A stretch of 64,000 nt of DNA. Origin: Bacteroidetes bacterium GWF2_33_16. Lineage in GTDB: Bacteria > Bacteroidota > Bacteroidia > Bacteroidales > UBA12077. This document shows, piece after piece, positions 16,356 to 54,244 of this stretch (within the stretch, counting starts at the first letter, position 1; every line of letters begins with the position of its first letter). The position numbers and the translations under genes are program-made. The stretch covers positions 223,215 to 287,214 of the forward strand of contig MEOE01000023.1 in the NCBI GenBank assembly GCA_001768565.1, read 5' to 3'. Under the pieces are notes generated by a model. The model did not search any database, had not been told where the DNA came from, and was given only the letters and a program-made list of their open reading frames with translations.

Positions 16356-16973
16356 CTATTCCTTAACATAATTCTTGTCCTTAATAGTACATCCAATCGC
16401 TTTTGTAAAATCAGTATCTGGATTCTTGCCATCAAGTAATGTATTTACTGCATTGGCCAAGTATTTCTGAGTTACAGCCGAGGCATCTTTGTAATTATCA
16501 TCTATTGCGCCAATATATTTAACAACAAAATCTTTTCCTTCTTTCTTTAACAAATAGATATGAGGTGTTCGTTTAGCTCCATAAATTTTATATACTTCCT
16601 GGTTTGAATCGAACAGATAAGAGAATGTAAACTCTTTTTCTTTTGCGCGTACAATCATTTTCTCGTACGAATCTTCTGGTGACAATACCGGATCGTTTGG
16701 ATTAATTGCAATTACCGGATATCCTTTTGCTCTGAATTCTTTATCTAATTCAATAATCCTGTCTTCGTAAGCAATGGCATACGGACAATGATTGCATGTA
16801 AAAATTACAATTGCACCTTTCTCTGCTGGTTTATAACTATAAAGAGAAATTTCTTTACCATCCACATCTTTCAATTTAAAGTCGGCTGCTTTGTCACCTG
16901 ATTTGTATCCTTGTGCAAAAATTGAGGACAAGCTAATACTCATAATTAAAATTATAAAAATTGTTTTTTTCAT
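16356..16973 (-). CDS. Thioredoxin-fold (redoxin/AhpC-TSA-like) secreted protein
   Basis: Signal peptide present. CNHCPY (CxxC) motif sits in a thioredoxin-fold context (VIFTCNHCPYA). Confidence 0.8.
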   Translation of the reverse strand: MKKTIFIILIMSISLSSIFAQGYKSGDKAADFKLKDVDGKEISLYSYKPAEKGAIVIFTCNHCPYAIAYEDRIIELDKEFRAKGYPVIAINPNDPVLSPEDSYEKMIVRAKEKEFTFSYLFDSNQEVYKIYGAKRTPHIYLLKKEGKDFVVKYIGAIDDNYKDASAVTQKYLANAVNTLLDGKNPDTDFTKAIGCTIKDKNYVKE

Positions 16974-17174: not shown

Positions 17175-17657
17175 TTAACTGATTACTCTCTTCAGCTCTT
17201 TCACTAGTTCTTCGTATGTAAATGATTGCTCAAAGAACAATCGCATATTCTTGTTAAAAATCAGTGTTGCAGGCAATGCTCCCGACCAGTCTGGACTTAC
17301 TTTATCAATCCAGAAATTGCTGTTAGGATCATCTAGAATTACAATGCGAGGTTTTAGCGAATGTCTTTCAGCAAAATTTTTCACTCTTGTTTGATAGTCT
17401 TTCCCAAAATCAAGGCTAACCAAAATAACAACTACTTTTTTATTTTTATAATTGGCATCCAATTGATTAAAGGCAGGCATTTCCTCAACACAGGGCTTGC
17501 ACCATGTTGCCCAAAAATTAATTACGTAGGTAGTGTCATCCTTCTGGTTTAGCAAAGGCTCTAGCTGCTCAAAATTATAAATTGGATAATGCTGCGAATA
17601 GCTATTTTGAGCAACTACGATAAAAAAAATAATGCTTATAAGAATTTTAATTTTCAT
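17175..17657 (-). CDS. TlpA family thiol:disulfide oxidoreductase
   Basis: Signal peptide present. FWATWCKPC active-site motif. Confidence 0.85.
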   Translation of the reverse strand: MKIKILISIIFFIVVAQNSYSQHYPIYNFEQLEPLLNQKDDTTYVINFWATWCKPCVEEMPAFNQLDANYKNKKVVVILVSLDFGKDYQTRVKNFAERHSLKPRIVILDDPNSNFWIDKVSPDWSGALPATLIFNKNMRLFFEQSFTYEELVKELKRVIS

Positions 17658-23685: not shown

Positions 23686-23712
23686 GAAAAAGGAGCCTTT
23701 CAGCTCCTTTCC
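23686..23712. terminator. Bidirectional terminator between convergent genes
   Basis: AAAGGAGC-CTTTCA-GCTCCTTT hairpin (23689-23710). Confidence 0.7.
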
Positions 23713-23732
23713 CTATTTTCCTTTATTCAAGA

Positions 23733-24686
23733 TCAAAACCAACCCGACTCCTGAATATCAAATGTTGCAGTGCCAATTTGTGCTCCATCGCCAAATAGAT
23801 ATACTTCGTATTTTCCAGGTATTAATGCACCATTATTGTCCCAATAAATTGTAACTTCAAGATCGTTACCTATAAAATCAATCGGACGTTTGGCCGAGAA
23901 AACAATTTGTTTGCCTTCGAATTCGAACAAATCATCTTCTGATTTAGCAAGAATATAATCATCTGGTCCTGCTATACGAACAAAAATATCACGTTCGCCT
24001 TGTTTTGCCAATACATTTTCTTTAATAGTAAAATCAATTTTAATTTTTTCAATTTTGTTGATCTTATTATTTTCTTTACCACGCTTATTAATACAAATAG
24101 CTTTTAAATTCTCAGTACGTAAAACACTTGCAAATTCAACTTTGCCTGTAAGATCTTTATTTTTTTCTTCCAGCTCTTTTTTCTCGGTTTGAAAAACTGT
24201 TATTTCGTTTTTAACCTTAATGTTTTCTGCAACCAAAGCCTGATTCATTGTATTTAACGAATCAATCTGGCGAACATAGCTTTGAGCAACTTCACGCAAC
24301 GTTCCTAATTCAGCTTCCAGTTGTTTAATCTTTGTAAAATTGGTTGCTTTTGTAGTTTTTAACTCTGCAATTAAATTATCAATTTTTTTCTTCTCTAAAT
24401 TTAATTGTTCGTTTATTGAGTCGTTATCAGTCATTAATTCGTCGTACTCAGCTTTTAATTGCTCCAAATGCGTTTGCAAAGAATCTTTTTCTGCTGTTAG
24501 TACTGTTTGAATTTCTTCAGTAGTATTGCGCTGATTAATATATAACCAGGTTACAACACCAAGTAATATTACAAGTAAAAACAATAAGAAAATTAATCCG
24601 CTATTTGATTTTTTTGGCTGATTAACTACCTGTTTATTTTGTTGTTGAGTATTTTCAGGATTTTGGTTTTTGTTTTGATCTTCCAT
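23733..24686 (-). CDS. Hypothetical membrane-anchored coiled-coil protein
   Basis: Q/N-rich N-terminal tail, then one TM helix (GLIFLLFLLVILLGVVTWLYI). About 150 aa of heptad-like sequence follows. The protein ends in a ~130-aa beta-rich C-terminal domain. Confidence 0.6.
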   Translation of the reverse strand: MEDQNKNQNPENTQQQNKQVVNQPKKSNSGLIFLLFLLVILLGVVTWLYINQRNTTEEIQTVLTAEKDSLQTHLEQLKAEYDELMTDNDSINEQLNLEKKKIDNLIAELKTTKATNFTKIKQLEAELGTLREVAQSYVRQIDSLNTMNQALVAENIKVKNEITVFQTEKKELEEKNKDLTGKVEFASVLRTENLKAICINKRGKENNKINKIEKIKIDFTIKENVLAKQGERDIFVRIAGPDDYILAKSEDDLFEFEGKQIVFSAKRPIDFIGNDLEVTIYWDNNGALIPGKYEVYLFGDGAQIGTATFDIQESGWF

Positions 24687-24797
24687 GATTTATAAAAAAT
24701 TTATGTATACAATTTAGCTTGCAAAATTAGTCTTTATTTTTAATTTGTTCGAATTTTTAGACACATTAATTAAACGCATTATTTAGTAAAATAGTAT

Positions 24798-25928
24798 TTA
24801 CTCTTCTGTATCAGTCTCTGTCATAAGAAAATATGTTCCATCGACAACGATTTCCGAGCTTAGAAGATCAGCTGATGGATTAATTATTTCAATATATTCA
24901 TCTTTTACAAGTCCTGTTTTTATCAATTGTTTTTCAAAACCCATCTCCTTTTTAACAAAAATATAAGATTTATCTTTATGTTCAGCAACAGCCGAACTGG
25001 GTAAACAAAATACTTCTTTTTCGTTTAACAGAATAGATGCGCCAATATACATTCCTGGGTGCAATTCACCCTTGACATTATTATATTTGCAAATAGCTTT
25101 CACTACTCTGTCAGTATTATCAATCTGTACACCAATGTTTTGAATAGTTGTAATAAATTTATTTTTATTATCATTAACCATAAAAAATACAACTCTTTGT
25201 CCTGTTTTAAGTTTATTAAGATCTTTTTCATAAATATTAAGGTTTATCATAACTAACGAAAAATTTATTACTTCACATATAGCATCAGCGGGTTCAATTA
25301 TCCTTCCCTTATTTATCCTTAAATTTGATACATATCCGGCAATAGGTGCTTTAACTTTAAATTCTTTAATAAAATCACCCTTGTCAATAATTGCTGGATC
25401 AATACCCAATAATTCGAGATTTGTTTTTGCCGATTTGTAAGCAGCCTGTGCTGTCCAATATTCAGCTTGAGCTTTTTGCATATTCTTTATTGATGCTGCA
25501 TTTTCAACAGTTAATTCGCCCTGCCTTTTAAACTCTTGTTCAAAATAATTTACCTGGCTTTTATTCTCTAAATATTGTTGTTGTAATGCAATAAAGTCGG
25601 GATGCGAAAGTGAAACTAGAATTGCTCCGGCTTTGACATAATCACCTTCATTTACAAAAACATCATTCACAAATCCAGAAATTACTGGCGAAATTGTAGC
25701 TCTATCTTTTGGCAAAACATCAATATTACCGGAACATTCCAATGATTCTGACAGTTTTCTCTTTTCAATTTTTCCTGCTTTTATTCCTGACTCATCAATT
25801 TGTTCTTGCGATAATTTAATGATGTAATCTGGAATTTCTTCGGGTTGAGCAACTATAGTTTCTGTTTTTTTATTTGTACAGGCCGAAATTATTGCTAATA
25901 CAAACAGAATAGTCATTACTTTTCTCAT
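24798..25928 (-). CDS. Efflux RND transporter periplasmic adaptor (MFP/HlyD-CzcB family) lipoprotein
   Basis: Lipobox IISAC. It has the biotinyl-lipoyl-like, hairpin and beta-barrel layout typical of MFPs. It starts 9 nt after the stop of the RND gene. I prefer ATG at 25928. Confidence 0.85.
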   Translation of the reverse strand: MRKVMTILFVLAIISACTNKKTETIVAQPEEIPDYIIKLSQEQIDESGIKAGKIEKRKLSESLECSGNIDVLPKDRATISPVISGFVNDVFVNEGDYVKAGAILVSLSHPDFIALQQQYLENKSQVNYFEQEFKRQGELTVENAASIKNMQKAQAEYWTAQAAYKSAKTNLELLGIDPAIIDKGDFIKEFKVKAPIAGYVSNLRINKGRIIEPADAICEVINFSLVMINLNIYEKDLNKLKTGQRVVFFMVNDNKNKFITTIQNIGVQIDNTDRVVKAICKYNNVKGELHPGMYIGASILLNEKEVFCLPSSAVAEHKDKSYIFVKKEMGFEKQLIKTGLVKDEYIEIINPSADLLSSEIVVDGTYFLMTETDTEE

Positions 25929-25937
25929 AAACAAAAA

Positions 25938-28900
25938 TTATTTAGTATAAAATTCAAGTTCAATAGCTGTTTTATTATAATTGTAAAGTGTTGTTAAATA
26001 CTCTGATTTTATATCTTGAGCCGTTTTAATACTTTGCAAAAATTCGAAATATTCTATCTCTTCTTTTTCAAATTGGATTTGAGCTGTTTGCGATAGCACT
26101 TCAGCTTTCTTCAATGCATTTTCATAATAATAAATAAGATCATTTTGTAATTGATCGAGTTGAATCACAAGATTTTCTATTTCTTTTGAAAGATTAAACC
26201 GTTGGTACTCTAATGTATTGAAAGCTTTTTCCTTCTCAATTTTTGCTTGTTGTACAGATGAATTTTGTGGTAAAAACCACAATGGAACAGATATGCCAAT
26301 GCTCCATCCTGTAAAACCTGAAACCTGATCAATCTGTTGACTAAAATATCCAGCTGAAATCTCAGGAAAATATTTTGATCGCTCCAAATTGTATTTTGTG
26401 TTTTCGAGGTTATATTTATTCTGGTAAAAGTCTGTTATTATTGAATTATCAAATCTTTCGCTGTCTTTCTGCACTGCAGGGAGCTGATAAATATACATAG
26501 AATCGGAAGCAGGCAAAAAATCTCCTTCTGAGTTCATAATTTGCTTTAGATTATTCTCTGCAATTAAAAGTTGCTCATTTATTTTCTGTAATTCATTTTT
26601 CGATTTAGCAAACTCCGTTTCGGCTAAGGTTTGTTCCAAGAGGTTCGTCTCACCCATTTTATATTTTAATTGCGCAATTCTAACAAACTCACTAAAAAGG
26701 CTAACTTGCTCCTGCTTTATTTTAAACTGATTAATTAGATGAATCCAATTGAACCAGGCAATTTTTGTTTGTACCGTTATTTCCTTTTTAGCAATTTCAA
26801 ATTCAGTATGGCTTAAGGCAATATTCTGGTTTACAAATTTTGAAGTTTGATAATGTGTTAGTAATGATCCAAAATTCTGATTAATCTCCCATGAATGATC
26901 TATTAGTTTGGAATTCATTTGCCCTTTTTGATATGAAAACTCAGTTGGGGCAAAATTTAAAATCGCTTGTTTGCCTTTTTTAGCACTTTGAATTGATAAT
27001 CCGGCATTTTTTAAAACAGGATTATTCGTTAAAGCCATTTCTACTGCCTGATCAATAGTAATATTTTGTGTTTCAGAATTACCTTCTTGTGCATACAAAG
27101 AACTTGAAGCTCCGACAATACCTAATAATAAAATAGTTTTAATCATTTTCGAAAACCTTGATAGCTTGAACTTATGTTTTGTATTAAAAACCATAAATAA
27201 CAATGGAAGAGCAATCATTGTTAGCATTGTTGATGTCACAAGGCCACCAATTACTACAGTAGCTAAAGGTCGTTGAACCTCTGCACCTGAAGATGTAGAA
27301 ATAGCCATTGGCAGAAATCCTAATGCTGCTGCTGCGGCAGTTAGCATTACCGGGCGAAGTCTTTCTCGGGTTGCTTTTAAAATCAATTCGCGCATATCGG
27401 TCATTCCTGATTCTTTTAAATCCTTTAAATGTTCAATAAGAACAATTCCATTTAATACGGCTACTCCAAAAAGAGCAATAAAACCAATACCTGCAGACAC
27501 ACTAAATGGCATTCCCCGAATCCATAAAAACAAAACTCCCCCAACAGCTGATAAAGGAACTGCTGTAAAAATAAGTACTGCATCTTTAATCGATTTAAAG
27601 GCAAAATGAAGGAATATAAAAATCAATAAAAGAGCTACTGGTACTGCGAGCATTAATCTTCGTGTTGCGTTTTGTAGGTTTTCAAATTGTCCTCCATAGG
27701 TTATGTAGGTTCCAGGATTTAACTTTACATTTTCACCTATCGAAGCCTGAATATCTTTTATAACCGATTCCAAATCACGATTACGAACATTAACACTTAC
27801 CACAACTCTGCGATGTGTATTTTCTCTTGAAATCTTGGCTGGTCCGGTTGTATAGAAAATATCTGCCAGCTCTGTCAATGGCACCTGATTTCCATTGTGC
27901 AATCCAATTTGTAATCCCTTTATATGATCAATATCTTTGCGAAAAGGTTCCTGAAAACGAACAACCATATCAAATCGTTTTTCACCTTCGAAAACACTTC
28001 CTGCCATTTCTCCGCCAAAAGCCATTGTTAATTGTTGATTTAGTTCTTCAATATTCAATCCATAAGCAGCAATCTTTTGGCGCTGATACGTAACACTTAT
28101 TTGAGGTAGTCCGGCTGTTTTTTCTAGTATTACATCGGCTGCGCCTGGAATTTTATCAATTAGTTTTTTTATTTCAATTGCTTTGTCATTTAAATAATCC
28201 AGGTCTTCACCAAAAATTTTAACTGCTATATCTGATCGTACTCCAGTTATTAATTCATTAAACCTCATCTCTATCGGTTGGGTAAATTCATAATCGATAC
28301 CAGGAATAACCAAAAGTGCTTCCTTAAACTTGTCTGCCAGCTCTTCTTTTGATTTAGCAGAAACCCATTCTTTTTTGGGCTTGAGTTTTATAATCATATC
28401 AATTTCTTCCATCGACATAGGGTCGGTAGGAACTTCGGCAGCACCAATACGACATACAATCTGATCGACTTCAGGAAATGTTTCTTTCAGGATTTTTTCC
28501 ATTTGTGTAGTTAACTCAACCGTTTTTGAAAGCGATGTCCCAGTTTTTAAAACAGGTTGAATTACAAAATCACCTTCATCAAGTGTTGGAACAAACTCTC
28601 CCCCCATCCGACCAAATAAATATCCTGTTAGAATAAGAGAAGCAATGGCCATTGCAAATATTATATTTTTATGATCGTAAGACCATTTTATTACGGGACA
28701 ATATGACCTATATGCAATATTCATGATCCATTTCGAAAGACTCTTTTTATTTTCTTTCTCAGGTTTTAAAAACAATGAAGAAGCTACCGGAAGCCATGTT
28801 AATCCCAGTATCATTGCTCCTAAAATTGCAAAACTAAAAGAGGTTGCCATTGGCCTGAACATTTTCCCTTCAACTCCACTCAATGTAAAAATTGGGATTA

Positions 28901-30290
28901 ATACAACCAAAATAATAATCTGACCAAATATTGCAGAATTAATCATTTTTGATGCCCCATCGAATGTAATTTTATCCATAAGCGACTGCCGCTGATCATC
29001 ATCAGCGCTTTCGTATTCATCTTTGCTTGTGGTTATTTTTATGGCTATATATTCGACAATAATTACGGCTCCGTCAATAATAATCCCAAAATCGAGTGCT
29101 CCCAAGCTCATTAGGTTTGCATCGACACCAAAAATATACATTAACGAAATAGTAAATAATAAAGCAAGCGGAATTATTGATGCTATAACCAATGCTGAGC
29201 GAATATTTCCGAGAAGAATAACTACAATAAACATTACTATTAAACAACCTAAAATCAGGTTTTCGGCAACTGTAAATGAAGTTTTCGAAATCAGTTCGCT
29301 TCTTTCAATAATTGGATTTATAAAAACCCCTTCAGGGAGGCTTTTCTGAACTTCATCAACGCGCTTCTTAACTTCATTTATAACCTTTTTTGAATTGGCA
29401 TCTTTAAGCATCATAATCTGACCAAGAACTTTTTCTCCTTCGCCATTAGCAGTAATAGCACCAAATCGATTAGCATATCCAAAGTGTATAGCTGCAATAT
29501 CTTGTAAAAGAACAGGAATACCATTCTTGTTTTTTACTACAATAGAGCCTATTTCTTCAATAGATTTCACCATTCCATCACCACGAATAAAGTAACTCTT
29601 ATTTTGCTTTTCAATATAGGCTCCTCCTGCTACACTATTATTACTATTTAGTGCATTAAAAACTTCGAGTAAAGTAATATTTAAGGCTTTTAGTTGTTCT
29701 GGGTTAATTGCTATTTCGTATTGTTTTAAAAATCCACCCCAGGTATTAACTTCAACAACACCTGTAATCCCAGAAAGTTGTCTTTTTACAATCCAATCCT
29801 GAATGGTTCTAAGCTCCATGGGTGAATATCGATTTGCGTACCCTGGTTTTGTGTCAAGAATATATTGGTAAACTTCACCTAAACCAGTGGTTATTGGTCC
29901 CATTTCGGGAGTTCCAAAACCTTCCGGAATATTAGCAGCAGCAGTTTTTATTTTCTCTGCAATAAGTTGGCGTGGTAAATAAGTACCCAGATCATCATCA
30001 AAAACAATCGTTACCACGGATAATCCAAACTTTGAAATAGATCTTATTTCCTTAACACCTGGCAAATTTGCCATCTCTAACTCAACTGGATATGTAATAA
30101 ACTGTTCAACATCCTGAGTCGAAAGATTCGATGAAACGGTAATTACCTGAACCTGGTTATTGGTAATATCAGGAACTGCACCAACCGGAATTTTAAGAAC
30201 TGCAAATATACCAAAGGCAGCAATTGTTAGAGTAAACAAAATAATAATTAGCTTATTTCGAATACTAAAATTTATGATTTGATTAATCAT
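25938..30290 (-). CDS. CzcA/CusA family heavy-metal efflux RND permease fused in frame to a TolC/CzcC-like outer-membrane factor (1450 aa)
   Basis: Residues 1 to ~1040 have the canonical 12-TM RND layout with CzcA-like blocks. From Met1049 (nt 27146) comes MIKTILLLGIVGASSSLYAQE (signal peptide). About 380 aa of TolC-like repeats follow (NNPVLKNAGLSIQSAKKGK...). There is no stop codon between the two parts. Confidence 0.85.
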   Translation of the reverse strand: MINQIINFSIRNKLIIILFTLTIAAFGIFAVLKIPVGAVPDITNNQVQVITVSSNLSTQDVEQFITYPVELEMANLPGVKEIRSISKFGLSVVTIVFDDDLGTYLPRQLIAEKIKTAAANIPEGFGTPEMGPITTGLGEVYQYILDTKPGYANRYSPMELRTIQDWIVKRQLSGITGVVEVNTWGGFLKQYEIAINPEQLKALNITLLEVFNALNSNNSVAGGAYIEKQNKSYFIRGDGMVKSIEEIGSIVVKNKNGIPVLLQDIAAIHFGYANRFGAITANGEGEKVLGQIMMLKDANSKKVINEVKKRVDEVQKSLPEGVFINPIIERSELISKTSFTVAENLILGCLIVMFIVVILLGNIRSALVIASIIPLALLFTISLMYIFGVDANLMSLGALDFGIIIDGAVIIVEYIAIKITTSKDEYESADDDQRQSLMDKITFDGASKMINSAIFGQIIILVVLIPIFTLSGVEGKMFRPMATSFSFAILGAMILGLTWLPVASSLFLKPEKENKKSLSKWIMNIAYRSYCPVIKWSYDHKNIIFAMAIASLILTGYLFGRMGGEFVPTLDEGDFVIQPVLKTGTSLSKTVELTTQMEKILKETFPEVDQIVCRIGAAEVPTDPMSMEEIDMIIKLKPKKEWVSAKSKEELADKFKEALLVIPGIDYEFTQPIEMRFNELITGVRSDIAVKIFGEDLDYLNDKAIEIKKLIDKIPGAADVILEKTAGLPQISVTYQRQKIAAYGLNIEELNQQLTMAFGGEMAGSVFEGEKRFDMVVRFQEPFRKDIDHIKGLQIGLHNGNQVPLTELADIFYTTGPAKISRENTHRRVVVSVNVRNRDLESVIKDIQASIGENVKLNPGTYITYGGQFENLQNATRRLMLAVPVALLLIFIFLHFAFKSIKDAVLIFTAVPLSAVGGVLFLWIRGMPFSVSAGIGFIALFGVAVLNGIVLIEHLKDLKESGMTDMRELILKATRERLRPVMLTAAAAALGFLPMAISTSSGAEVQRPLATVVIGGLVTSTMLTMIALPLLFMVFNTKHKFKLSRFSKMIKTILLLGIVGASSSLYAQEGNSETQNITIDQAVEMALTNNPVLKNAGLSIQSAKKGKQAILNFAPTEFSYQKGQMNSKLIDHSWEINQNFGSLLTHYQTSKFVNQNIALSHTEFEIAKKEITVQTKIAWFNWIHLINQFKIKQEQVSLFSEFVRIAQLKYKMGETNLLEQTLAETEFAKSKNELQKINEQLLIAENNLKQIMNSEGDFLPASDSMYIYQLPAVQKDSERFDNSIITDFYQNKYNLENTKYNLERSKYFPEISAGYFSQQIDQVSGFTGWSIGISVPLWFLPQNSSVQQAKIEKEKAFNTLEYQRFNLSKEIENLVIQLDQLQNDLIYYYENALKKAEVLSQTAQIQFEKEEIEYFEFLQSIKTAQDIKSEYLTTLYNYNKTAIELEFYTK

Positions 30291-30428
30291 GAGCTTACTC
30301 TTTAATTAAAAATGCTAAGAATTAATGAGTTTTAAATTTAAAACTTTTTTCTGGTTAATAGAATTTTAAGAATTACAAAAATTTAATTAACATTTATTTA
30401 AAGAAAGCGAATTCAAAACTAATTTAAT

Positions 30429-30452
30429 AAAAAACGCGCATTGCTGCGCGTT
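30429..30452 (-). terminator. Rho-independent terminator downstream of lgt
   Basis: CGCGCA-GCAA-TGCGCG hairpin read on the minus strand, followed by T6. Confidence 0.8.
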
Positions 30453-30458
30453 AGGTTA

Positions 30459-31253
30459 TTATTTAATCTGTGGTTGCCAAAAACTTCGAAATAGAAGAAA
30501 AATACCCACAAGGATAAATGGTATACTCAACCACTGACCCATATTCAGAGACATCCCAGTTTCAAAATCAACCTGAACCTCTTTTATAAATTCGATGAAA
30601 AATCGCACAGTAAACAACGATATTAAGAAAATCCCAAATAGTAAACCCTGCTTTAGCTGTTTTCCTTTTTTGCTATAAATAAGCAATAAAACAACAAAAA
30701 TTATAAGATAAGATAATGCTTCATATATCTGCGTAGGGTGCTTTGGTACAATTTGGCCATCACGAACAAATATAAAACCCCATGGAAGGCTTGTTTCGAT
30801 TCCATAAATTTCGGAGTTCATTAAATTACCCATTCTTATAAAAAATCCGGCAAGAGCAACAACAATAACTATACGATCAAGTATCCACAAATAGGGCTTT
30901 TTATTTTTCTTACCAAAATAATACAGTGCAATCAATATTCCAATTGCAGCACCATGACTGGCTAATCCGCCGTGCCATATAAACAATATTTCCCATGGAT
31001 TTCTAAGATAATACTCGGGCTGATAAAAAAAACAATGTCCCAGCCGGGCACCTAAAACTGTTCCAATTGCCATATAAATTGTAAGATTATCAAGTAACTC
31101 TATTGGTAAGTTTTCTTTTTTGAACATTTTTTGCATAATCAAATATCCAAAAAAGAAAGATGCAGCAAACAATACACCGTAATATCTAATGCTTATTATC
31201 CAAAACCCAATAAGTTCGGGATCAACATTCCAGGTAATATAATCTAAAATCAT
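30459..31253 (-). CDS. lgt: Prolipoprotein diacylglyceryl transferase
   Basis: Motifs YGVLFAASFFFGY, GARLGHCFFYQPEYY, HGGLASHGAAIG and PTQIYE are present. I prefer ATG at 31253 over the TTG at 31280. Confidence 0.9.
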   Translation of the reverse strand: MILDYITWNVDPELIGFWIISIRYYGVLFAASFFFGYLIMQKMFKKENLPIELLDNLTIYMAIGTVLGARLGHCFFYQPEYYLRNPWEILFIWHGGLASHGAAIGILIALYYFGKKNKKPYLWILDRIVIVVALAGFFIRMGNLMNSEIYGIETSLPWGFIFVRDGQIVPKHPTQIYEALSYLIIFVVLLLIYSKKGKQLKQGLLFGIFLISLFTVRFFIEFIKEVQVDFETGMSLNMGQWLSIPFILVGIFLLFRSFWQPQIK

Positions 31254-31439
31254 GGAGTTTTTTTTAGTTGTAAAGTACAAATGTAAAAAAAAATCTTTGG
31301 CTTATCCTTAACTTCCTATCATCATAATGTTATAAAATTTAAAATGAAGGTATTTATGGTATCTATTTTGCAAATCTTATTCTCAATTATTTAAATAAAC
31401 TTTATAAGTTTGTACCTTGTACTTTTAAAATTAAAATTG

Positions 31440-33266
31440 ATGTTCAGAATAAAAGCCATTTCGTTTTGTTATATAGGGATTATATTTATTGCTATGGGTT
31501 GTGCTCAAGTTGTTACACCAACTGGTGGATCGAAAGACTCTGAGCCACCGGTTATTAAATTAAGCAAACCTGAAAACTTTTCAACCAACTTTAAAAATAA
31601 AAATGTAAGTATAACTTTTGACGAGTACATTCAATTAAAAGACCTTAATAAAAGTCTCATTATTTCGCCACCAATGGAAGAGAAACCCATGATCAGGGTT
31701 AAGGGAAAAACATTAAATATTAATTTCGATTCTTTTTTAAAGGATTCAACCACCTACAATTTATATTTTGGAAATGCATTGCAAGATTTTAATGAGGGCA
31801 ATCCATACTTAAACTTTCAATATGTTTTTTCTACTGGCAGTTATATCGATTCATTGTCTATTAAAGGAAAAATTTTGAATGCATTCGATCTTGTTTCTGT
31901 TGAAGATGTTTTTGTTATGTTATACTCAGAACTTACTGATTCAGTGCCTTACAAGCAAATTCCTGAATATATTTCTAAAACAGATAAGGAAGGTACTTTT
32001 AGAATCAATAATATACGGAACGATAAATTTAAAATTTTCGCATTAAAAGATGCTAATAATAACTATCTCTTTGATAACAGTAGCGAGGAAATTGCTTTCA
32101 GTGATTCTATTATAACATTCGCTCCGGAAACCATTAATCATATTGATACTATTTTTAAAATACAAGATAATAATACTAAGAATTCGTCAGAAAAAGACGA
32201 CCTTGTTTTGAAAAAGCAAGCAAAAAAACCAGAAATTGATACAATTATCGAGCACTCGTATGTGGGTTATCCAATAAAAAGCTATACTCTATTGATGTTT
32301 GCCGAAGATTTTGAAACACAATATCTACTGAATTATAAACGTGATGAAAAATATAAATTAGAATTTATATTTAATCGACCTGTAAAGGATAGTTTAATTT
32401 TCGAAGTTCTTGATAATTCCAATGCTCAATATATTAAGGAGGTTAGTACCCAAAAAGATACTTTTATATATTGGTTAACAGATACGTTAGATTTTAATGA
32501 GAAAGAAATATCTTGTTTAGTATCATACCAAAAACTTGATTCAACCAAGCAATATTATTGGAAAACAGATACACTTAAAATGCAATATCTTGAAGTAAAA
32601 AAATCAAAAAAAGACGAAATCGAATCTGATTTTAAAATAGACCTAAATATAAAAGATAAATCAACTCTTGACCTAAATAACACTATTACCATAAACCTGG
32701 GAAACCCTATTCAATATATTGATACGACGAACCTAGCGTTATTTTCAATAACTGATTCGGTTGAAACAATAGTTCCCTTCAACCTTAATTTAGATAAAGC
32801 TAAGTTGAGAAAATATTCATTATCAGCAAACTGGCAAGAAAACACAAATTATCGTTTCGAAATTCTGCCATCAGCCATTAAAGATATTTATGGTAATACG
32901 AATGATACTCTTATTACAAAATTCAGAACCCAAAAACTTGATTTTTATGGAAAATTGCTAATAAAAATTAATGGAATAGAGAACAATAAAAATGTTATAG
33001 TACAGCTAATTACTTCAAGTAAAAACTCAGAAGATGTAATTAGAGAAAAATATATTAATGAAAATCAGGAAGTTGAATTTAGTTTTCTTCCACCAAAAGA
33101 ATTTTTGGTAAAATTAATTTTCGACGAAAATAATAATAAGGTATGGGATACTGGTAACTATTTAAAACACATTCAACCAGAGGAAGTGCTTTATTTTGAG
33201 AAACCTGCAAAAATAAGATCCAACTGGGATGTTGAAATTGCTATTGATTTAACAAAACGAAAATAA
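31440..33266 (+). CDS. Ig-like domain-containing lipoprotein (Bacteroidota conserved)
   Basis: Lipobox AMGCAQ followed by VVTPTGGSKDSEPPVI, which is typical of SbsA/Big_5-like N-termini. I prefer ATG at 31440. A TAAGTTTG box at 31405-31412 lies inside the TTG-extended ORF. Confidence 0.7.
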   Translation: MFRIKAISFCYIGIIFIAMGCAQVVTPTGGSKDSEPPVIKLSKPENFSTNFKNKNVSITFDEYIQLKDLNKSLIISPPMEEKPMIRVKGKTLNINFDSFLKDSTTYNLYFGNALQDFNEGNPYLNFQYVFSTGSYIDSLSIKGKILNAFDLVSVEDVFVMLYSELTDSVPYKQIPEYISKTDKEGTFRINNIRNDKFKIFALKDANNNYLFDNSSEEIAFSDSIITFAPETINHIDTIFKIQDNNTKNSSEKDDLVLKKQAKKPEIDTIIEHSYVGYPIKSYTLLMFAEDFETQYLLNYKRDEKYKLEFIFNRPVKDSLIFEVLDNSNAQYIKEVSTQKDTFIYWLTDTLDFNEKEISCLVSYQKLDSTKQYYWKTDTLKMQYLEVKKSKKDEIESDFKIDLNIKDKSTLDLNNTITINLGNPIQYIDTTNLALFSITDSVETIVPFNLNLDKAKLRKYSLSANWQENTNYRFEILPSAIKDIYGNTNDTLITKFRTQKLDFYGKLLIKINGIENNKNVIVQLITSSKNSEDVIREKYINENQEVEFSFLPPKEFLVKLIFDENNNKVWDTGNYLKHIQPEEVLYFEKPAKIRSNWDVEIAIDLTKRK

Positions 33267-33681: not shown

Positions 33682-36600
33682 ATGAAGAAATTATTCATAT
33701 CTCTTTTAGTTTTTGGAATTGCTTTTACCCAGAGCTATTCTCAGAAACAGACCAAAATTAAGATTCAGGAGAAAACCGCGCTTCAATCTTTACAACAAGA
33801 AAAGATTACATCTCTTGACAGATTTATAATTAAAGAAAGTATTTCAGATATTATTGTTATAGAAAGATTAACAAAAGAAGGAGTATTCGGAGAAATTACA
33901 GCTGATGGAATGAGTAAAACTTATTCATCAGGAAACCCTGATTTACCTTTATTTGGCAAGCTAATAGAAATTCCTGCTAATCAAACTGTTAAACTTGCGG
34001 TTATTAATTATAAAGAGAAACAAATACAACTTGCGAATTATAGCATTACTGAAAAGATAATTCCAGCCCAGGAATCCATGTCAAAAAGCGATGATCCAGA
34101 AAAAATTCCTTTCAAAATTAACAAAGACATATATTCACGAAATAGATTTTACAAGAACGAATTTATTACTTTCGAAGATCGTGGTTATTTGAGAGACAAG
34201 CACCTTGGTTTTATTCAGATATCGCCTTTCGAATATAATCCAGTTACAAATACTTTGTTGGTTAAATACGATTTTGAGATAGAAGTACAATTTGTTCCCG
34301 ACAATAAAAGCAACATTAAGATAGATGATAGATTAAAATCATCCTATTTCGAAAACTTACCAATACAAACTATAAACGAGATTTCCGATACAAAAGCATT
34401 AATACAGGGTCCGGTTAAGTATGTAATTGTTTCAGATCCGATGTTCGAAACTACATTGCAACCATTTATTGAATGGAAAAAACTAAAAGGATTTGATGTA
34501 ATTTCTGCTTATACAAATAATCCGTTAGTTGGCAATACAGCAACTACAATAAAAGCTTACTTAAAGGACTTATATGATAATCCTTCAAATGGTATTTCGC
34601 CTACCTTCGTTCTACTAGTTGGTGATGTGGCTCAAGTTCCTGCCTCGTATGTATCCAGCCATAGTTCTGATCTATATTATTATGAATACACAGGAGATAA
34701 GTTACCTGAAGTATTTGGTGGAAGATTCTCAGCAACAACTATTGAGCAACTTCAGCCTCAAATTGATAAAACATTACAAGTTGAGAAATATTTAATGCCT
34801 GATCCCTCGTACCTTAACAATGTTGTTATAATTGCCGGAGCAGATGCATCTTATGCACCAACATATGGAAACGGATTTGTAAATTATACCAACACCTATT
34901 ATACAAATAGTGCCAATGGAATAAACTCTATTTCTTATTTATACCCCACATCAGCAAGTGCCGACGAAACAATAAGAACAAACATTTCGAATGGTGTTGC
35001 ACTCGCAAATTATACTGCACATTGCAGCAGCTCTGGCTGGTCAGATCCAACGTTTTCCATTGACAATGTTGCATCAATGACTAATGCAAACAAATATCCA
35101 TTAATGATAGGAAATTGTTGTGAGTCGCTATCGTTTGGAGGCAATTGTTTTGGAGAGGAATTATTGAGAGCGGCCAATAAAGGTGCTGTAGGTTATATTG
35201 GTGCATCAAATCTTTCTTATTGGGATGAAGATTTTTACTGGGCTATTGGTGTAGCACCTATTTCGGCTAACCCAACTTATGAAGGAAGTGGACTTGGTGC
35301 ATATGACCGATTCTTCCATCTAAATAATGAAGCAAAAAATGATTGGTTTATTACGCAGGGACAAATTAATGTTGCTGGTAATTTGGCTGTAGAAGCATCT
35401 TCTTCGACTCGAAAAGCATATTATTGGGAAATCTACCATCTAATGGGTGATCCTTCATTAACCCCATTTGTAAAAGTCCCTACAATATTATCTTCATCTT
35501 ACAACAACGAGATTATAGTTGGTTCACCAAACTATGAAGTAATTACTGAAGAAGACGCTTTCGTAGCATTATCATTCAATGGAGTATTACTTGATGCAAA
35601 AATGGCCGGATCTGACGGACTGGTAGTATTATCTTTTAGTGCACTACCTGAAGTTGGAATCGCAAACCTGGTTATTACAAAACAAAATAGGATTCCGGTT
35701 ATTGAAGAGATAAGTATTATCCCATCAACTACGCCTTATATAATTAAAGACTTGGTTAATGCAATTGATATTACAGGGAATAATAATGGGATCTTAGAAT
35801 ATGGAGAAAACATTTCATTAAACGTTCAATTAAAAAATGTATCTACAATTTACGATGCTTTTGCTGTTGTTGCTAAGTTACAAACAAGTGACTCTGTAAT
35901 TACCCCAATAGATTCGATAGAAAACTATGGAACGATTCTTAAGGATACCGTTTCGTTAATTGAAAATGCATATCAATTCGTACTTAAAAACACTATTCAG
36001 GATCAACATCTGTTGCAATTTAACTTCCAGATTACAGGTAGCGATGCAAGTTCAAACCCATATATATGGAACTCAAAAGCTAGTTATCTTATTAATGCTC
36101 CAAACCTTATAATTGGAAATCTAATTATTGATGATTCTGGTTTTAATGCCAATGGAATTGTTGATCCGGGAGAAACGGTAACTCTTAAGTGGATTGTGCA
36201 AAACACAGGTCATGCTGATATCTCTGGATTAACTGGTTTGCTTGAATATGTTAGTGGAAGCACACTGGTAACAATAAATCAAAACACAACCAATGAATTC
36301 ATATTGATTGCAGGAGAAACTGACACCCTTGAATTAACAATAACCGTATCGGCTCTTGAAAATAAAGAAACGCCTGTTGAACTTAAATTTTCCTTAGTTG
36401 ATAATCAGTTTGATTTTTATACAAAATCGAAAACCGAAACAATTATTATTGGAGAAATACCCGAACATAACATTTCTGATGGAGGTAGAATAAGTATTTA
36501 TGATTCTGCCTTATTTTACGATTCTGGAGGAAGTATAAATGATTATAAGAATGACGAAAACTATACAATTACTTTCGTGCCATATGAAAAAGTGGGTTTA

Positions 36601-37821
36601 TTAAAAGTAAAATTCATTAGTTTTGATGTAGAACAAAAAAGTACTGGTGGCTGCTGGGATAAATTAACAATCTATGATGATACTATTACTAATGTTGAAA
36701 AAATAATAGGTGAGTTTTGCAGTTACAATCCTCCTTCAGAATATATTGCTACAAACTCAGCAGGAGCATTAACATTCAAATTCTATTCAGACGAATCAGT
36801 TGTAAAACCAGGATGGAAAGCAGAAATTACTCGTATAGATTTGTTTTCAGTAAAATTTATTGTTACAACAGCAGGTATTCCTGTTGAAAATGCACTTGTG
36901 AAGTTTAATTCGCAAGAAAAATATACCAATGCTATTGGAGAAGTAATATTTGATGAAGTGAATGGTGGCTCACAATTACCTTATGAAATAAGAAAAACCG
37001 GCTACAACAATGTATTTGGGAATATTGATGTTACATCAAATATTACAAAAGAAATATCTCTTGTAGAAGGGGTAGTATATTACACAATAGATTTTACTGT
37101 TACTAATGGAACAAATCCAATAAGCGGCGCAACTATTCTATTCGATAATATGGAAGGACAAACCGATACAAGCGGCAAATATTCTTTTGACTCCATTGCA
37201 TATGAATTAAATAAGAAATTTACTGTTTCAAAAGAAAAATACCTTCCATATATTGATTCTATTGATGTAGACACAAATTATTCCATTCATGTAGTTTTAG
37301 TTTTAGAAACATATACGGTTACTTTTCAGGTTACAAGTAATGCAAATTCAGGGCCTCTGGAAGGTGTAAATATTAGTTTCAATACACAGGAACAAATAAC
37401 AAACACTAATGGAGTTGCTATTTTTATTCAAGTTGAGCCAAAATCAGGAATAAACTACACCTTGACAAAATCTGGATTTGTTGATCTTTTGGGTAATGTT
37501 GATATTGTTAGTGAAAATAAAATTCTAAATCTAACCATGTCTATTATTTCATCAATAAACGATATCATCCAAGAGTCTATTTCTATATATCCTAATCCAT
37601 CACAGGGCTTAATTAATATTGACATGGGACTTATTAAAAATGGACTTGCTTTGATTGATGTTTTTGATATTTTGGGAAAATCAATCTTTAGAAAAGAGGT
37701 TATGGTTAGTGAAAATACCAAAGAAATAATAGATCTTACAGAGCAACCAAAAGGCATTTATTTTATTTCTGTTAAAACATCATCTGGAGAGCAATTTAGT
37801 AGAAAAATAATTATTAAATAA
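33682..37821 (+). CDS. Gingipain-like C25 family cysteine peptidase with CUB-like domain, three tandem Ig/CarboxypepD_reg-like repeats and a T9SS C-terminal sorting domain
   Basis: Signal peptide present. The C25 core is YVIVSDPMFETTLQPFIEWKKLKGFDV. Candidate catalytic residues are His (YTAHCSSSGW) and Cys (IGNCCESL). A CUB-like block lies at ~36470-36840. Three ~75-aa repeats lie at ~36841-37530. The CTD is SIYPNPSQG...GIYFISVKT...KIIIK. Confidence 0.85.
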   Translation: MKKLFISLLVFGIAFTQSYSQKQTKIKIQEKTALQSLQQEKITSLDRFIIKESISDIIVIERLTKEGVFGEITADGMSKTYSSGNPDLPLFGKLIEIPANQTVKLAVINYKEKQIQLANYSITEKIIPAQESMSKSDDPEKIPFKINKDIYSRNRFYKNEFITFEDRGYLRDKHLGFIQISPFEYNPVTNTLLVKYDFEIEVQFVPDNKSNIKIDDRLKSSYFENLPIQTINEISDTKALIQGPVKYVIVSDPMFETTLQPFIEWKKLKGFDVISAYTNNPLVGNTATTIKAYLKDLYDNPSNGISPTFVLLVGDVAQVPASYVSSHSSDLYYYEYTGDKLPEVFGGRFSATTIEQLQPQIDKTLQVEKYLMPDPSYLNNVVIIAGADASYAPTYGNGFVNYTNTYYTNSANGINSISYLYPTSASADETIRTNISNGVALANYTAHCSSSGWSDPTFSIDNVASMTNANKYPLMIGNCCESLSFGGNCFGEELLRAANKGAVGYIGASNLSYWDEDFYWAIGVAPISANPTYEGSGLGAYDRFFHLNNEAKNDWFITQGQINVAGNLAVEASSSTRKAYYWEIYHLMGDPSLTPFVKVPTILSSSYNNEIIVGSPNYEVITEEDAFVALSFNGVLLDAKMAGSDGLVVLSFSALPEVGIANLVITKQNRIPVIEEISIIPSTTPYIIKDLVNAIDITGNNNGILEYGENISLNVQLKNVSTIYDAFAVVAKLQTSDSVITPIDSIENYGTILKDTVSLIENAYQFVLKNTIQDQHLLQFNFQITGSDASSNPYIWNSKASYLINAPNLIIGNLIIDDSGFNANGIVDPGETVTLKWIVQNTGHADISGLTGLLEYVSGSTLVTINQNTTNEFILIAGETDTLELTITVSALENKETPVELKFSLVDNQFDFYTKSKTETIIIGEIPEHNISDGGRISIYDSALFYDSGGSINDYKNDENYTITFVPYEKVGLLKVKFISFDVEQKSTGGCWDKLTIYDDTITNVEKIIGEFCSYNPPSEYIATNSAGALTFKFYSDESVVKPGWKAEITRIDLFSVKFIVTTAGIPVENALVKFNSQEKYTNAIGEVIFDEVNGGSQLPYEIRKTGYNNVFGNIDVTSNITKEISLVEGVVYYTIDFTVTNGTNPISGATILFDNMEGQTDTSGKYSFDSIAYELNKKFTVSKEKYLPYIDSIDVDTNYSIHVVLVLETYTVTFQVTSNANSGPLEGVNISFNTQEQITNTNGVAIFIQVEPKSGINYTLTKSGFVDLLGNVDIVSENKILNLTMSIISSINDIIQESISIYPNPSQGLINIDMGLIKNGLALIDVFDILGKSIFRKEVMVSENTKEIIDLTEQPKGIYFISVKTSSGEQFSRKIIIK

Positions 37822-37903: not shown

Positions 37904-38572
37904 ATGAGCATAGAACGAAAACGATTTTTGTTAAGCTTAATTTCTCCTGGTATTTTTATTTTAATTATCTGGTTTGTTAAGATTTTTGAAACTAGTTTAT
38001 CTCTCGATTTTACTTATCTTGGAATTTTTCCATTAAAAAAAACAGGACTTATTGGGATAATAACTGCACCATTAATACATGCCGATTTTGGACATTTAAT
38101 TTCTAATAGTGGACCTTTACTTATTCTGGGTACCGGACTTTTCTATTTTTACAATAAAATAGCATTTAGGGTTTTCTTTTTAGTATACATTATTACTAAT
38201 ATCTGGATTTGGTTTGGGGCACGCCATGCTTATCATATAGGTGCCAGTGGATTGGTTTACGCATTAGCTTCATTCCTTTTTTTTAGTGGCGTGTTTAGCA
38301 AGAATATGCGTCTTATGGCTATTTCACTGCTTGTAGTTTTCCTTTATGGGAGTATGATTTGGGGGATTTTCCCCATTCAACCCCAGATATCATGGGAGTC
38401 GCATTTAATGGGGGCAATTTGTGGTATTGTTCTTGCTATTTATTATAAAGATCAGGGGCCCAGACCCAAAAAATACAGTTGGGAGCTTGAAGATGAAAAG
38501 GATGAAGATGATCCTGAAAACGAATATTGGAAAATAACTCCTTTAGAAAATGAAGATGAAAAAAATATATAA
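37904..38572 (+). CDS. Rhomboid family intramembrane serine protease
   Basis: Six TM helices. The catalytic GASG motif ([11 protein letters not shown]) and a downstream His ([10 protein letters not shown]) are present. The C-terminal tail is acidic. Confidence 0.85.
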
Positions 38573-39260
38573 AACAATCGGAGTATTTATTTGTGGATTT
38601 TTTGTTTTACTTGCAGCACTCTCTTTTGGACAACAAAAGGGATTTGAACAAACCGGAATTGCAAGTTTCTACGCTAACAAATTTGAAGGACGAACTACAT
38701 CAAACGGAGAAATCTATTTTCACGATAAAAAAACAGCTGCACATCCTACCTTACCATTTGGAAGTATTGTAAAAGTTACAAACCTTGAGAATAATAAATT
38801 TGTAGTTGTTCGCATTAACGACCGAGGTCCTTTTATTGTGGGGCGTATTATTGACCTTTCACAATCTGCGGCCAAAGAACTGGGTTTTATTGAAAAAGGA
38901 GTTGTAAAAGTTAAAATTGTTGTAATTGCTTCTACCGAAGATATGCCTGATATAGTGCCAGATATTGCTGTAAAAACAAACGAACCCCGGTATTATAAAA
39001 TAGATGTTTCTGTTGCTATCCCAGCTGGCAAAGGAGTTCAGATTGGCAGTTTTAAAAACGATGAGAATGTATTCCGTTTAGCCGAACGCCTAAAATCAAA
39101 ATATAGCGAAGAGGTTTTTGTTGAAACAGCCGAAGTTAATGGGCAACGGGTTTACAGAGTTATTGTAGGTAATTCAGTAAACGAAATCCATCTTCAAAAA
39201 CTAAAATCGAAACTGGCAACCGAATACCTCGATTGTTTTATAGTTAAGTATAAAAAGTGA
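38550..39260 (+). CDS. rlpA: Septal ring lytic transglycosylase RlpA family protein (DPBB + SPOR domains)
   Basis: [19 protein letters not shown]...[15 protein letters not shown]...[10 protein letters not shown] is present. The C-terminal domain is SPOR-like ([12 protein letters not shown]...YRVIVG). Confidence 0.85.
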
Positions 39261-51628: not shown

Positions 51629-52096
51629 ATGAAAACAAAATTCTTTACTCTTTTTGCACTTGTTTTATTCTTTTCCACATCATGCCTTTTTGCACAGGAT
51701 GCAGATAAATTTCTTGGGTATTGGTTAACTCAGGATGGCGATTCGCAAGTAAAAATTTTTAAAGCCAAAGATGGAAAATATTATGGTGATATTAAATGGT
51801 TAAAAACACCTAACGAGCCAGATGGTACAGCAAAACTTGACAAAAACAATTCAGATGAGCAATTGAAAAAAAGACCTGTTCTTGGTTTACAAATTCTCAA
51901 ATCATTTGAATATGATGCCAAAGACAAGGAATGGGTTGATGGAACAATTTATGATCCCAAAAATGGTAAAACTTACAAATGCTTTATCCGTTTTAAAGAT
52001 GGTGACGAAAATACATTGTTGGTAAAAGGATTTATTGGTATTTCATTACTTGGAAGAGAAGTTATTTGGCAAAGAGAAGAAAAATTAAGAGAATAA
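51629..52096 (+). CDS. DUF2147 domain-containing secreted protein
   Basis: Signal peptide present. The pattern is GYWLTQDGDSQVKIF...GKYYGDIKWL...RP.LGL.IL...W.DGTIYDPKNGKTYKC. Confidence 0.8.
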   Translation: MKTKFFTLFALVLFFSTSCLFAQDADKFLGYWLTQDGDSQVKIFKAKDGKYYGDIKWLKTPNEPDGTAKLDKNNSDEQLKKRPVLGLQILKSFEYDAKDKEWVDGTIYDPKNGKTYKCFIRFKDGDENTLLVKGFIGISLLGREVIWQREEKLRE

Positions 52097-53674: not shown

Positions 53675-54244
53675 CTAATCTTTTTCACCCCATCTTTTCG
53701 TCTCAATTTCAAATCCTGCCAGATCAAGTATTCGATTTACAACAGTATTAACAACATCATCGATAGTTAAAGGTTTGGTATAAAAAGATGGTGTTGCCGG
53801 GCAAATAATTCCTCCTGCTTCGGTTATGGTTTTCATGTTATTAATATGAATAAGGCTATATGGTAGCTCACGAGGAACCAAAATGAGTTTTTTTCTTTCT
53901 TTCAACATTACATCAGCAGCCCGTGTAATTAAATCATCTGAAATTCCATTCGCTATTCTGCCCAAGGTACCCATTGAACAAGGACAAATAATCATTGTTT
54001 CATATTGTGCCGAGCCCGATGCAAAAGGAGCATAAAAATCATTGGCAGTATAAATTTTAAATGAATACTCTTTATAGGATTTCGTTCCTAATTCATATTC
54101 CCATATTTCTTCTGCATTTTTTGAAAAAACAATTCCAATATCTTGTAATTGATTAGAGATAGTTGTCAACTTGTCCAACAGTAATTTGGCATATATTGAT
54201 CCACTGGCTCCTGTAACTGCAATAACTACTTTTTGTTTTTTCAT
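53675..54244 (-). CDS. ubiX: Flavin prenyltransferase UbiX
   Basis: KVVIAVTGASGSIYA and downstream flavoprotein blocks are present. ATG at 54244 overlaps the upstream stop (ATGA overlap). Confidence 0.9.
   Translation of the reverse strand: MKKQKVVIAVTGASGSIYAKLLLDKLTTISNQLQDIGIVFSKNAEEIWEYELGTKSYKEYSFKIYTANDFYAPFASGSAQYETMIICPCSMGTLGRIANGISDDLITRAADVMLKERKKLILVPRELPYSLIHINNMKTITEAGGIICPATPSFYTKPLTIDDVVNTVVNRILDLAGFEIETKRWGEKD

Follow-up and report, generated by a model that had tools for sequence, protein, structure and literature searches.

A predicted polyprotein of Bacteroidota joins a metal-efflux RND pump and its outer-membrane channel through a putative internal export signal

In Bacteroidetes bacterium GWF2_33_16, a single open reading frame (ORF) of contig MEOE01000023.1 encodes a resistance-nodulation-division (RND) metal-efflux pump together with its outer-membrane exit channel, the two being joined in one frame through what reads as an internal export signal. 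The frame was analysed within a window of 64,000 nt, by which the whole stretch of DNA studied is meant and whose positions are used for all coordinates given here; it starts with ATG, comprises 1450 codons and runs without interruption over 25938-30290(-), as had been stated in the first-pass annotation of the window. In tripartite pumps, the RND permease, the adaptor and the outer-membrane factor (OMF) are taken as separate gene products, and how they meet and in which ratios is debated. The product of the present gene is probably a precursor polyprotein whose internal signal exports the OMF, which is then released by signal peptidase I, while the RND part keeps the signal as a 13th helix. 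It also seems reasonably likely that across much of Bacteroidota RND and OMF are made as one such precursor, with release by signal peptidase I, a signal that stays behind as a 13th helix and products residing in two membranes, and that p317, the product of the last gene of the apparent operon, may be a further component.

Both halves of the protein are complete, bona fide family members, with no sign of either being a remnant. The N-terminal half had been described as a complete CzcA/CusA-like permease with 12 transmembrane (TM) segments reaching to about residue 1040, and profile matches and hydropathy agree with that description. Pfam ACR_tran spans aa 5-1035 (profile positions 1-1020 of 1021, E 1.6e-277), NCBIfam TIGR00914 (CusA/CzcA) is matched from profile position 1 to 1040 (of 1051) with 1151.7 bits, the cutoff being 701.45, and the best sequence matches in the Protein Data Bank (PDB) are ZneA (4k0e, E 1e-193) and CusA (3k07, E 9e-180), with which collinearity holds over aa 1-1038. 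A Kyte-Doolittle scan of the whole protein finds 13 hydrophobic segments, the 12 of the RND and one more at aa 1049-1067, with nothing further C-terminal of that, and it places the two large periplasmic loops of the RND half at about aa 41-337 and 561-875. The proton-relay motif of TM4, ALDFGIIIDGAVIIVEY, aligns with AIDFGIIVDGAIVVMEN of ZneA; relative to the DFGxxxDGAxxxVEN divalent-cation consensus the two Asp and the Glu are kept and the last Asn is replaced by Tyr. Judged by family membership, the RND half would be a CzcA/ZneA-type pump of the heavy-metal efflux (HME) group, with divalent cations as the best guess for its substrate.

The C-terminal half, for which about 380 aa of TolC/CzcC-type sequence had been claimed, amounts to a predicted mature moiety of 383 aa; Pfam OEP matches two stretches of the C-terminal part (86.9 bits, cutoff 22), and the profile check that had been proposed for ACR_tran and OEP/TolC confirmed both halves above cutoffs. 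A single-sequence search of the PDB with the OMF half gave no match at E <= 0.01; a profile built from 10 sequences retrieved SilC (9rmm, E 2.7e-10) and also CusC, CmeC and OprM. The AlphaFold2 (AF2) model of aa 1049-1450 (predicted local distance difference test 86, predicted template-modelling score 0.78) consists of a duplicated beta-hairpin and long alpha-hairpins; its strands occupy model residues 69-93 and 262-286, and its helices reach a length of 69 residues. A Foldseek search with this model ranks CusC first (3pik, E 1.4e-18, template-modelling score 0.72), followed by TOprJ1, TolC and OprM, and all 44 significant PDB matches are OMFs. According to the model, the OMF half would be a complete outer-membrane factor of the TolC/CusC fold, remote in sequence from solved structures. 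When 1.8 billion cluster representatives were searched with the OMF half, 2592 relatives came up at E <= 0.001; many of the best matches are stand-alone OMFs of 395-430 aa, others being full fusions or fusion fragments. Proteins of intermediate length with a C-terminal OMF (606-943 aa) were considered as other fusion types and rejected, all ten that were tested being RND-OMF fragments, in which the end of ACR_tran is followed by OEP.

The junction between the two halves reads ...LPLLFMVFN-TKHKFKLSRFSKMIK-TILLLGIVGASSSLYA and continues, past the putative cleavage site, with QEGNSETQNITIDQAVE... The linker N1036-K1051, which lies between TM12 and the hydrophobic core, holds six Lys/Arg and no Asp/Glu and is predicted to be cytoplasmic; the RND C-terminus is cytoplasmic in the AcrB and CusA structures. 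T1052-A1067 (TILLLGIVGASSSLYA) form the h- and c-regions, and the elements of the signal follow one another in the order linker with six Lys/Arg, TILLLGIVGASSS, then L-Y-A. A signal-peptidase-I site is predicted between A1067 and Q1068, i.e. between nt 27090 and 27089. Met1049 (nt 27146-27144) opens MIKTILLLGIVGASSSLYA, which is followed after this site by QEGNSE; the Sec-type signal with a site after A1067 that the first-pass annotation had recognised here is present as it was read, at an internal location. The segment begins at residue 1049 of 1450, after 12 TM segments, and not at the N-terminus, where a signal peptide would by definition be placed; it appears to act like a signal peptide though set inside a precursor. 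From A1067 to the first structured element of the OMF there are 7-8 residues in the AF2 model of the query and 3-4 residues in many homologues.

The character of this junction was followed in an alignment of 116 full-length homologues and, at the DNA level, in a survey of 42 distinct fused loci. In the alignment, position -1 is Ala, Gly or Ser in 109 of the 116 homologues, position -3 is Ser, Ala, Leu, Val or Thr in 105, and position +1, Q1068 in the query, is Gln in 113. Among the 42 loci the linker carries 3-10 Lys/Arg (median 5) and a median of 0 Asp/Glu, and the uncharged h+c stretch measures 15-24 aa (median 18). Seventeen loci with Lys, Arg or Glu in the c-region escape strict automatic rules for the h-region and the cleavage site, and all 17 visibly have [AGS]Q; in the most divergent fused loci, with an OMF identity of 25-30%, the pattern is still seen by eye (...GVSQAQT, ...VKAQT, ...GVKGQI). 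The character of linker and signal is kept across RND identities down to about 50%. Such a pattern shows that the junction, though drifting in sequence, keeps the make-up of a signal-peptidase-I substrate. The column of Met1049 behaves otherwise: it is Met in one of the 116 homologues, the query alone, and elsewhere Lys (38), Ser (22), Asn (16), Thr (11), Ala (8) or others. An in-frame ATG 15-30 codons 5' of the putative site was found in 10 of the 42 loci, at scattered positions, and is absent from 32. Because Met is confined to one sequence in its column and a suitable ATG to 10 of the 42 loci, the internal start codon is a non-conserved feature.

In Bacteroidetes, signal-peptidase-I substrates have been described as carrying Gln directly after the cleavage site, the so-called Q-rule (PMC5837995), and the +1 Gln of exported proteins is cyclised to pyroglutamate (PMC5837995, PMC10653852). 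Eight other N-terminal signal peptides encoded in the window end in [AGS]Q (among them those of the ORFs 16356-16973, 17175-17657, 38550-39260, 51629-52096, 54241-54849, 56084-57670 and 57701-58183), which indicates that the source organism follows the Q-rule and that the internal site conforms to it. The 1379-aa ORF at window 33682-37821(+) has an N-terminal signal peptide of the Q-rule type, ending in ...FTQSYSQ and followed by KQ. Stand-alone OMFs of the same subfamily (e.g. P0125 and P0127-P0130, 395-417 aa), which share 35-41% identity over the mature OMF, possess genuine N-terminal signal peptides that match the internal segment position by position in the alignment, down to the same xAQ end; since it can be aligned with these, the internal segment is the homologue of a working signal peptide. 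The polyprotein with a retained signal, one of three possibilities raised by the first-pass annotation, is therefore favoured by the conserved n-, h- and c-regions, the -3/-1 residues and the +1 Gln, while the cleavage itself keeps the standing of a prediction.

The fusion is widespread. The identical 1450-aa protein is found in two metagenome-assembled genomes (MAGs), GWF2_33_16 and GWE2_32_14 (OFX88088.1, OFY04053.1), on six contigs. The comparison of orthologue lengths that had been suggested gave about 1450 aa: 116 of the best 120 homologues (61-81% identity) measure 1443-1466 aa, most of them have both Pfam domains on record, and the best 120 include a protein from the complete genome of Ignavibacterium album JCM 16511. 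In a survey limited to one genome per species, a scan with an OMF profile gave 80 loci, which were classed by their reading frames. The RND C-terminus and the OMF share one open frame in 59 of the 80 (51 of them complete and 8 truncated at a contig end), and two more are fusions whose RND body carries a large in-frame deletion; 14 have a stand-alone OMF, three have RND and OMF broken by frameshifts or stops, and two were too short for classing. An intact RND gene followed by a stop and a separate OMF gene was found in none of the 80 loci, so that the uniform two-gene arrangement of orthologues, which the first-pass annotation had named as speaking against its reading, is clearly not what occurs. 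Fused loci bear the labels Bacteroidales, Marinilabiliales, Cytophagales (Catalinimonas, Roseivirgaceae), Sphingobacteriales, Chitinophagaceae (Terrimonas, Cnuella, Flavisolibacter) and Flavobacteriales (Chryseobacterium, Kaistella), and complete genomes or isolates with the fusion comprise Ignavibacterium album JCM 16511, Kaistella chaponensis DSM 23145, Cnuella takakiae and Catalinimonas sp. Identity to the query rises and falls together in the RND part and the OMF part (r = 0.94, n = 50, a correlation that rests largely on two groups of points), which fits one old fusion inherited with the operon.

A few loci of the survey stand apart. Two Proteobacteria-labelled MAGs, 'Thiohalospira sp.' (L017, JBKHIH010000058.1) and 'Rhodoferax sp.' (L075, JBAQDW010000389.1), contain Bacteroidota-type fused genes, the junction of the latter being near-identical to those of Kaistella and Chryseobacterium; both contigs are probably mis-binned. 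At L077, L078 (Niabella defluvii, CP079215.1) and L079 the RND and OMF parts lie on the same strand and are split by stops or frameshifts, and these loci are either pseudogenes or the result of long-read indel errors.

The course of events that we infer, from membrane topology through export, cleavage and pyroglutamate formation to the benefit of the fusion, would be as follows. The 12-TM CzcA/ZneA-type RND would insert co-translationally into the inner membrane and leave its C-terminus on the cytoplasmic side, the short loop rich in Lys/Arg would stay inside in line with the positive-inside rule, and the hydrophobic segment aa 1052-1067 would enter SecYEG in N-in/C-out orientation as a 13th TM segment and start export of the OMF to the periplasm. 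Signal peptidase I would cut after A1067, and the freed OMF of 383 aa would begin with Gln, probably converted to pyroglutamate as in other exported proteins of Bacteroidetes, trimerise and insert into the outer membrane. The RND would retain the signal as a permanent extra C-terminal helix, and the separately translated lipoprotein adaptor, a membrane fusion protein (MFP), would bridge RND and OMF. Pump and channel would in this manner arise from one initiation event, equimolar (3:3) and co-localised, and such equimolar, co-localised synthesis of two trimeric partners is likely to be the benefit of the fusion. The lipidated adaptor, of which twice the amount is needed, is here translated separately. 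It might be speculated that weak translational coupling, where initiation is not led by a Shine-Dalgarno sequence, favours fusion.

Three other explanations have to be weighed against a processed polyprotein. The fusion might remain uncleaved, with the 13th segment as a TM anchor and the tethered OMF working as a single chain in both membranes or as a periplasmic cap; this we consider unlikely. The continuous and conserved frame would suit it, as would the hydrophobic stretch of up to 24 residues in some homologues, yet a TM helix would normally be longer than the h+c stretch, whose median is 18 aa, and a plain anchor would give no reason for the almost unvarying Gln at +1 and small residue at -1, which match the signal-peptidase-I substrates of the phylum. 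Furthermore, the modelled OMF moiety has the full beta-barrel-forming CusC/TolC fold, and its stand-alone homologues are ordinary secreted OMFs. In AcrAB-TolC and CusCBA the OMF chain starts in the equatorial domain, some 150 Å away from the inner membrane. With this pump geometry roughly 150 Å would have to be bridged by a tether of 3-8 residues, at most about 30 Å; by this comparison cleavage seems to be needed, because the tether is too short for an uncleaved OMF to reach the outer membrane. A second explanation, also raised in the first-pass annotation, is internal initiation at Met1049, with the OMF made as an ordinary secretory precursor and the full-length fusion as a minor or non-functional by-product. 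In Bacteroidetes, initiation can do without a Shine-Dalgarno sequence, which makes internal starts in A/U-rich sequence conceivable, codon 1049 of the query is an ATG with a canonical n/h/c signal peptide behind it, and some in-frame ATG stands 15-30 codons 5' of the site in 10 of the 42 distinct loci. In the remaining 32, nevertheless, no suitably placed ATG exists, those found elsewhere are scattered, the Met1049 column is Met in a single one of the 116 homologues, and Ignavibacterium album is a species with no internal ATG (junction ...IIRNKTLTIILFILIPSLVSFAQ...). Moreover, no promoter-type motif was seen 5' of the OMF part, and a stop after the RND would be costless if separate translation mattered, yet none of the 80 loci has the order RND, stop, OMF. 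As a mechanism of the family internal initiation is thus unsupported, and we regard this explanation as quite improbable, while it might act as a minor route in this one gene.

Finally, a stop codon might be missing because of a mistake in sequencing or assembly, or because of a mutation of very recent date that leaves a non-functional read-through. The source is a metagenome-assembled genome, and a few related loci (L077-L079) are frameshifted; against this, the same 1450-aa protein comes from two MAGs and six contigs, full-length fusions make up 116 of the best 120 homologues, complete genomes and isolates contain the fusion too, and the character of linker and signal is conserved down to about 50% RND identity. 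The identity between the two MAGs and the phylum-wide fusion refute an assembly error or a recent stop-codon loss, an option that the first-pass annotation had kept, and we give it virtually no credence. Several points nevertheless weigh against the processed polyprotein. The case for cleavage consists of motif conservation; position -3 of the query is Leu, which is acceptable, though Ala is optimal; and Met1049 is an in-frame ATG from which a workable N-terminal signal peptide could start. For a large periplasmic domain behind 12 TM segments, SecA-driven translocation late in synthesis would be required, which is plausible for such a substrate, and some lineages do without the fusion, the RND part having been lost from 14 loci and the OMF part from one relative.

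These partial loci bear on how the two halves are joined. The 14 stand-alone OMF loci (L015, L016, L023, L034, L035, L037, L043, L045, L049, L050, L051, L057, L062 and L065) have no HME-RND gene within 6 kb on either side in 14 of 14 cases. Like the query OMF, stand-alone OMFs of Bacteroidota carry an xAQ signal at the equivalent position and are followed by an MFP gene; unlike it, they have their own ATG in front of an N-terminal signal peptide, and they look like the products of secondary RND losses. L015, L016 and L023 are syntenic with window 23733-31996, with genes for a Big_5 protein, lgt, OMF, MFP and p317 in place and exactly the 3.1-kb RND part missing. Most stand-alone OMFs are closest to fused genes (L023 to L019, 78%; L015/L016 to L003/L007, 76%; L043 to L047, 72%; L050 to L042, 78%), and since the nearest relatives of most of them are fused, the sequences imply that the RND part was lost independently at least five times. 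In L032:1090-2601 (P0123, 498 aa) and L044:3485-5257 (590 aa), TM10-12 follow directly and in frame on the RND N-terminus or TM1, and linker, signal peptide and intact OMF are retained after the deletion of the RND body; the joint of L044 sits on a short 'AVP' repeat found at both deletion ends. P0216 (668 aa) is possibly another in-frame deletion of this kind. The converse loss is represented by P0105 (1058 aa, L081:3001-6300), an OMF-less variant whose RND is 83% identical to the RND half of the query and which ends within the basic linker, at ...KFKRNNKNSLTI before the stop codon, with a lipoprotein gene next downstream. It was ruled out as a split orthologue, given that the RND ends in the linker and is then followed by the lipoprotein gene instead of an OMF; just upstream of it are IS1595-type and HTH_Tnp_1 transposase genes and a gene for an extracytoplasmic function (ECF) sigma factor. 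Because either half has repeatedly been lost cleanly at the linker, the linker is a true module boundary, from which either half can go.

The surroundings of the fusion gene resemble an operon (Table 1). As had been noted, the adaptor gene follows at 9 nt from the fusion stop, its ATG being at 25928; its product starts with MRKVMTILFVLAIISAC, has a lipobox (IISAC) that marks it as a lipoprotein, and matches Pfam HlyD_D23 (E 2.3e-33) and TIGR01730, RND_mfp (151 bits, cutoff 94.9). In 77 of the 80 loci an MFP homologue is encoded directly 3' of the OMF, while L026, L033 and L065 gave no match. The next gene encodes p317, a protein of 317 aa whose N-terminus is Q/N-rich and which has a single TM segment, a long coiled coil and a beta-rich domain at its C-terminus; Pfam and NCBIfam gave just weak coiled-coil matches and no family for it. 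Homologues of p317 are present 3' of the MFP gene in 44 of the 80 loci, RND-less ones included, down to about 35% identity, and its conservation, up to 91%, is above that of the pump genes; p317 may be a fourth component or merely reflect tight synteny. Upstream, a terminator-like hairpin 3' of lgt (30452-30433) and a Bacteroidetes-type TAnnTTTG motif (30421-30414, about 125 nt 5' of the RND ATG) precede the fusion gene. Matches to TAnnTTTG across the window number below chance and are weak consensus matches, so the motif is used descriptively. On the minus strand none occurs in 27147-28828, the ~1.7 kb 5' of Met1049, and motif and hairpin scans found neither a terminator nor a Bacteroidetes-type promoter motif just 5' of the OMF part; a scan for sigma-70-type promoters gave fewer matches than shuffled sequence and is uninformative. 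This arrangement is consistent with one transcript for RND-OMF, MFP and p317.

Table 1. Parts of the fusion gene and of the putative transcription unit, in window positions
Feature	Position	Strand	Basis
RND permease moiety, aa 1-1037	27180..30290	(-)	Pfam, TIGR00914, PDB matches, 12 hydrophobic segments
Basic linker N1036-K1051, NTKHKFKLSRFSKMIK, also putative n-region of the internal signal	27138..27185	(-)	sequence
Internal signal-peptide-like segment M1049-A1067	27090..27146	(-)	homologue alignment and hydropathy
Predicted mature OMF moiety Q1068-K1450, 383 aa, TolC/CusC fold	25941..27089	(-)	Pfam OEP, profile search, AF2, Foldseek
Stop codon TAA of the fusion	25940-25938	(-)	sequence
Periplasmic adaptor (MFP) gene	24798..25928	(-)	Pfam HlyD_D23, TIGR01730
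p317, last gene of the apparent operon	23733..24686	(-)	sequence; homologues 3' of MFP
Putative upstream boundary of the transcription unit: lgt hairpin and TAnnTTTG motif	30414..30452	(-)	consensus matches only
Terminator-like hairpin closing the apparent operon, 3' of p317	23686..23713	(-)	12-bp stem, then T-run

The locus has the same three parts as the tripartite heavy-metal systems CzcCBA, ZneCBA and CusCBA (Cupriavidus metallidurans, E. coli), namely an HME-RND, an OMF and an adaptor of the RND_mfp/HlyD_D23 type. It differs from these systems in that RND and OMF share one ORF, in its gene order, A-C-B instead of C-B-A, and in the additional conserved gene p317 after the adaptor; moreover, the signal of the query OMF is of the signal-peptidase-I type and ends in AQ, whereas CusC has a lipobox with Cys. 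The nearest mechanistic precedent known to us is FbcH of Bradyrhizobium japonicum, a cytochrome b-c1 polyprotein for which a signal-peptidase cut was reportedly shown experimentally by Thony-Meyer et al. in 1989-1991. Similarly to what is proposed for the query, FbcH is said to combine an inner-membrane protein with an internal signal that exports the downstream moiety and to give 1:1 subunits of one complex, and the predicted topology of 12 TM segments, basic loop and 13th hydrophobic segment would fit an FbcH-type processed polyprotein; FbcH belongs, however, to other families, both its products stay at the inner membrane where the freed half of the query would have to move on to the outer one, and its cut is experimental where that of the query is predicted. 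In eukaryotes, host signal peptidase cuts viral and eukaryotic polyproteins at internal signals in the flavivirus structural region and similar cases, which follow the same stop-transfer/signal logic at the endoplasmic reticulum and offer a conceptual analogy only. Subunit fusions are known within the RND superfamily, e.g. the single-chain SecDF of Thermus thermophilus, as described in the accessible portions of a 2021 Chemical Reviews survey of tripartite pumps (PMC8277102); as in the query, components that are otherwise separate are fused, but the two halves are both inner-membrane proteins and are not cleaved, and none of these fusions is known to link an inner-membrane transporter with its channel in the outer membrane. 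The same portions of that survey (PMC8277102) mention no RND-OMF fusion. None was found described in the full-text literature, and a prior mention is possible elsewhere, in subscription journals, TCDB or InterPro, which lay outside the search. The new element is the covalent RND-OMF linkage via an internal signal peptide, each part by itself being a typical member of its family (HME-RND, OMF or MFP); the architecture is abundant in sequence databases, plain in precomputed Pfam annotations and apparently uncharacterised.

The names under which the fusion proteins are deposited ('multidrug transporter AcrB', 'CzcA', 'CusA/CzcA family...') omit the OMF half, and for this reason pump inventories of Bacteroidota would score fusion operons as OMF-less and under-count OMFs. 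If the proposal is correct, the gene would specify a rare bacterial polyprotein processed by signal peptidase, and to our knowledge no other is known whose products reside in different membranes; it would also provide an RND with a 13th TM helix. Above all, a natural 1:1 RND:OMF precursor that frees the channel beside the pump would offer a handle on pump assembly and partner specificity, which would matter most in a phylum with many paralogous pumps.

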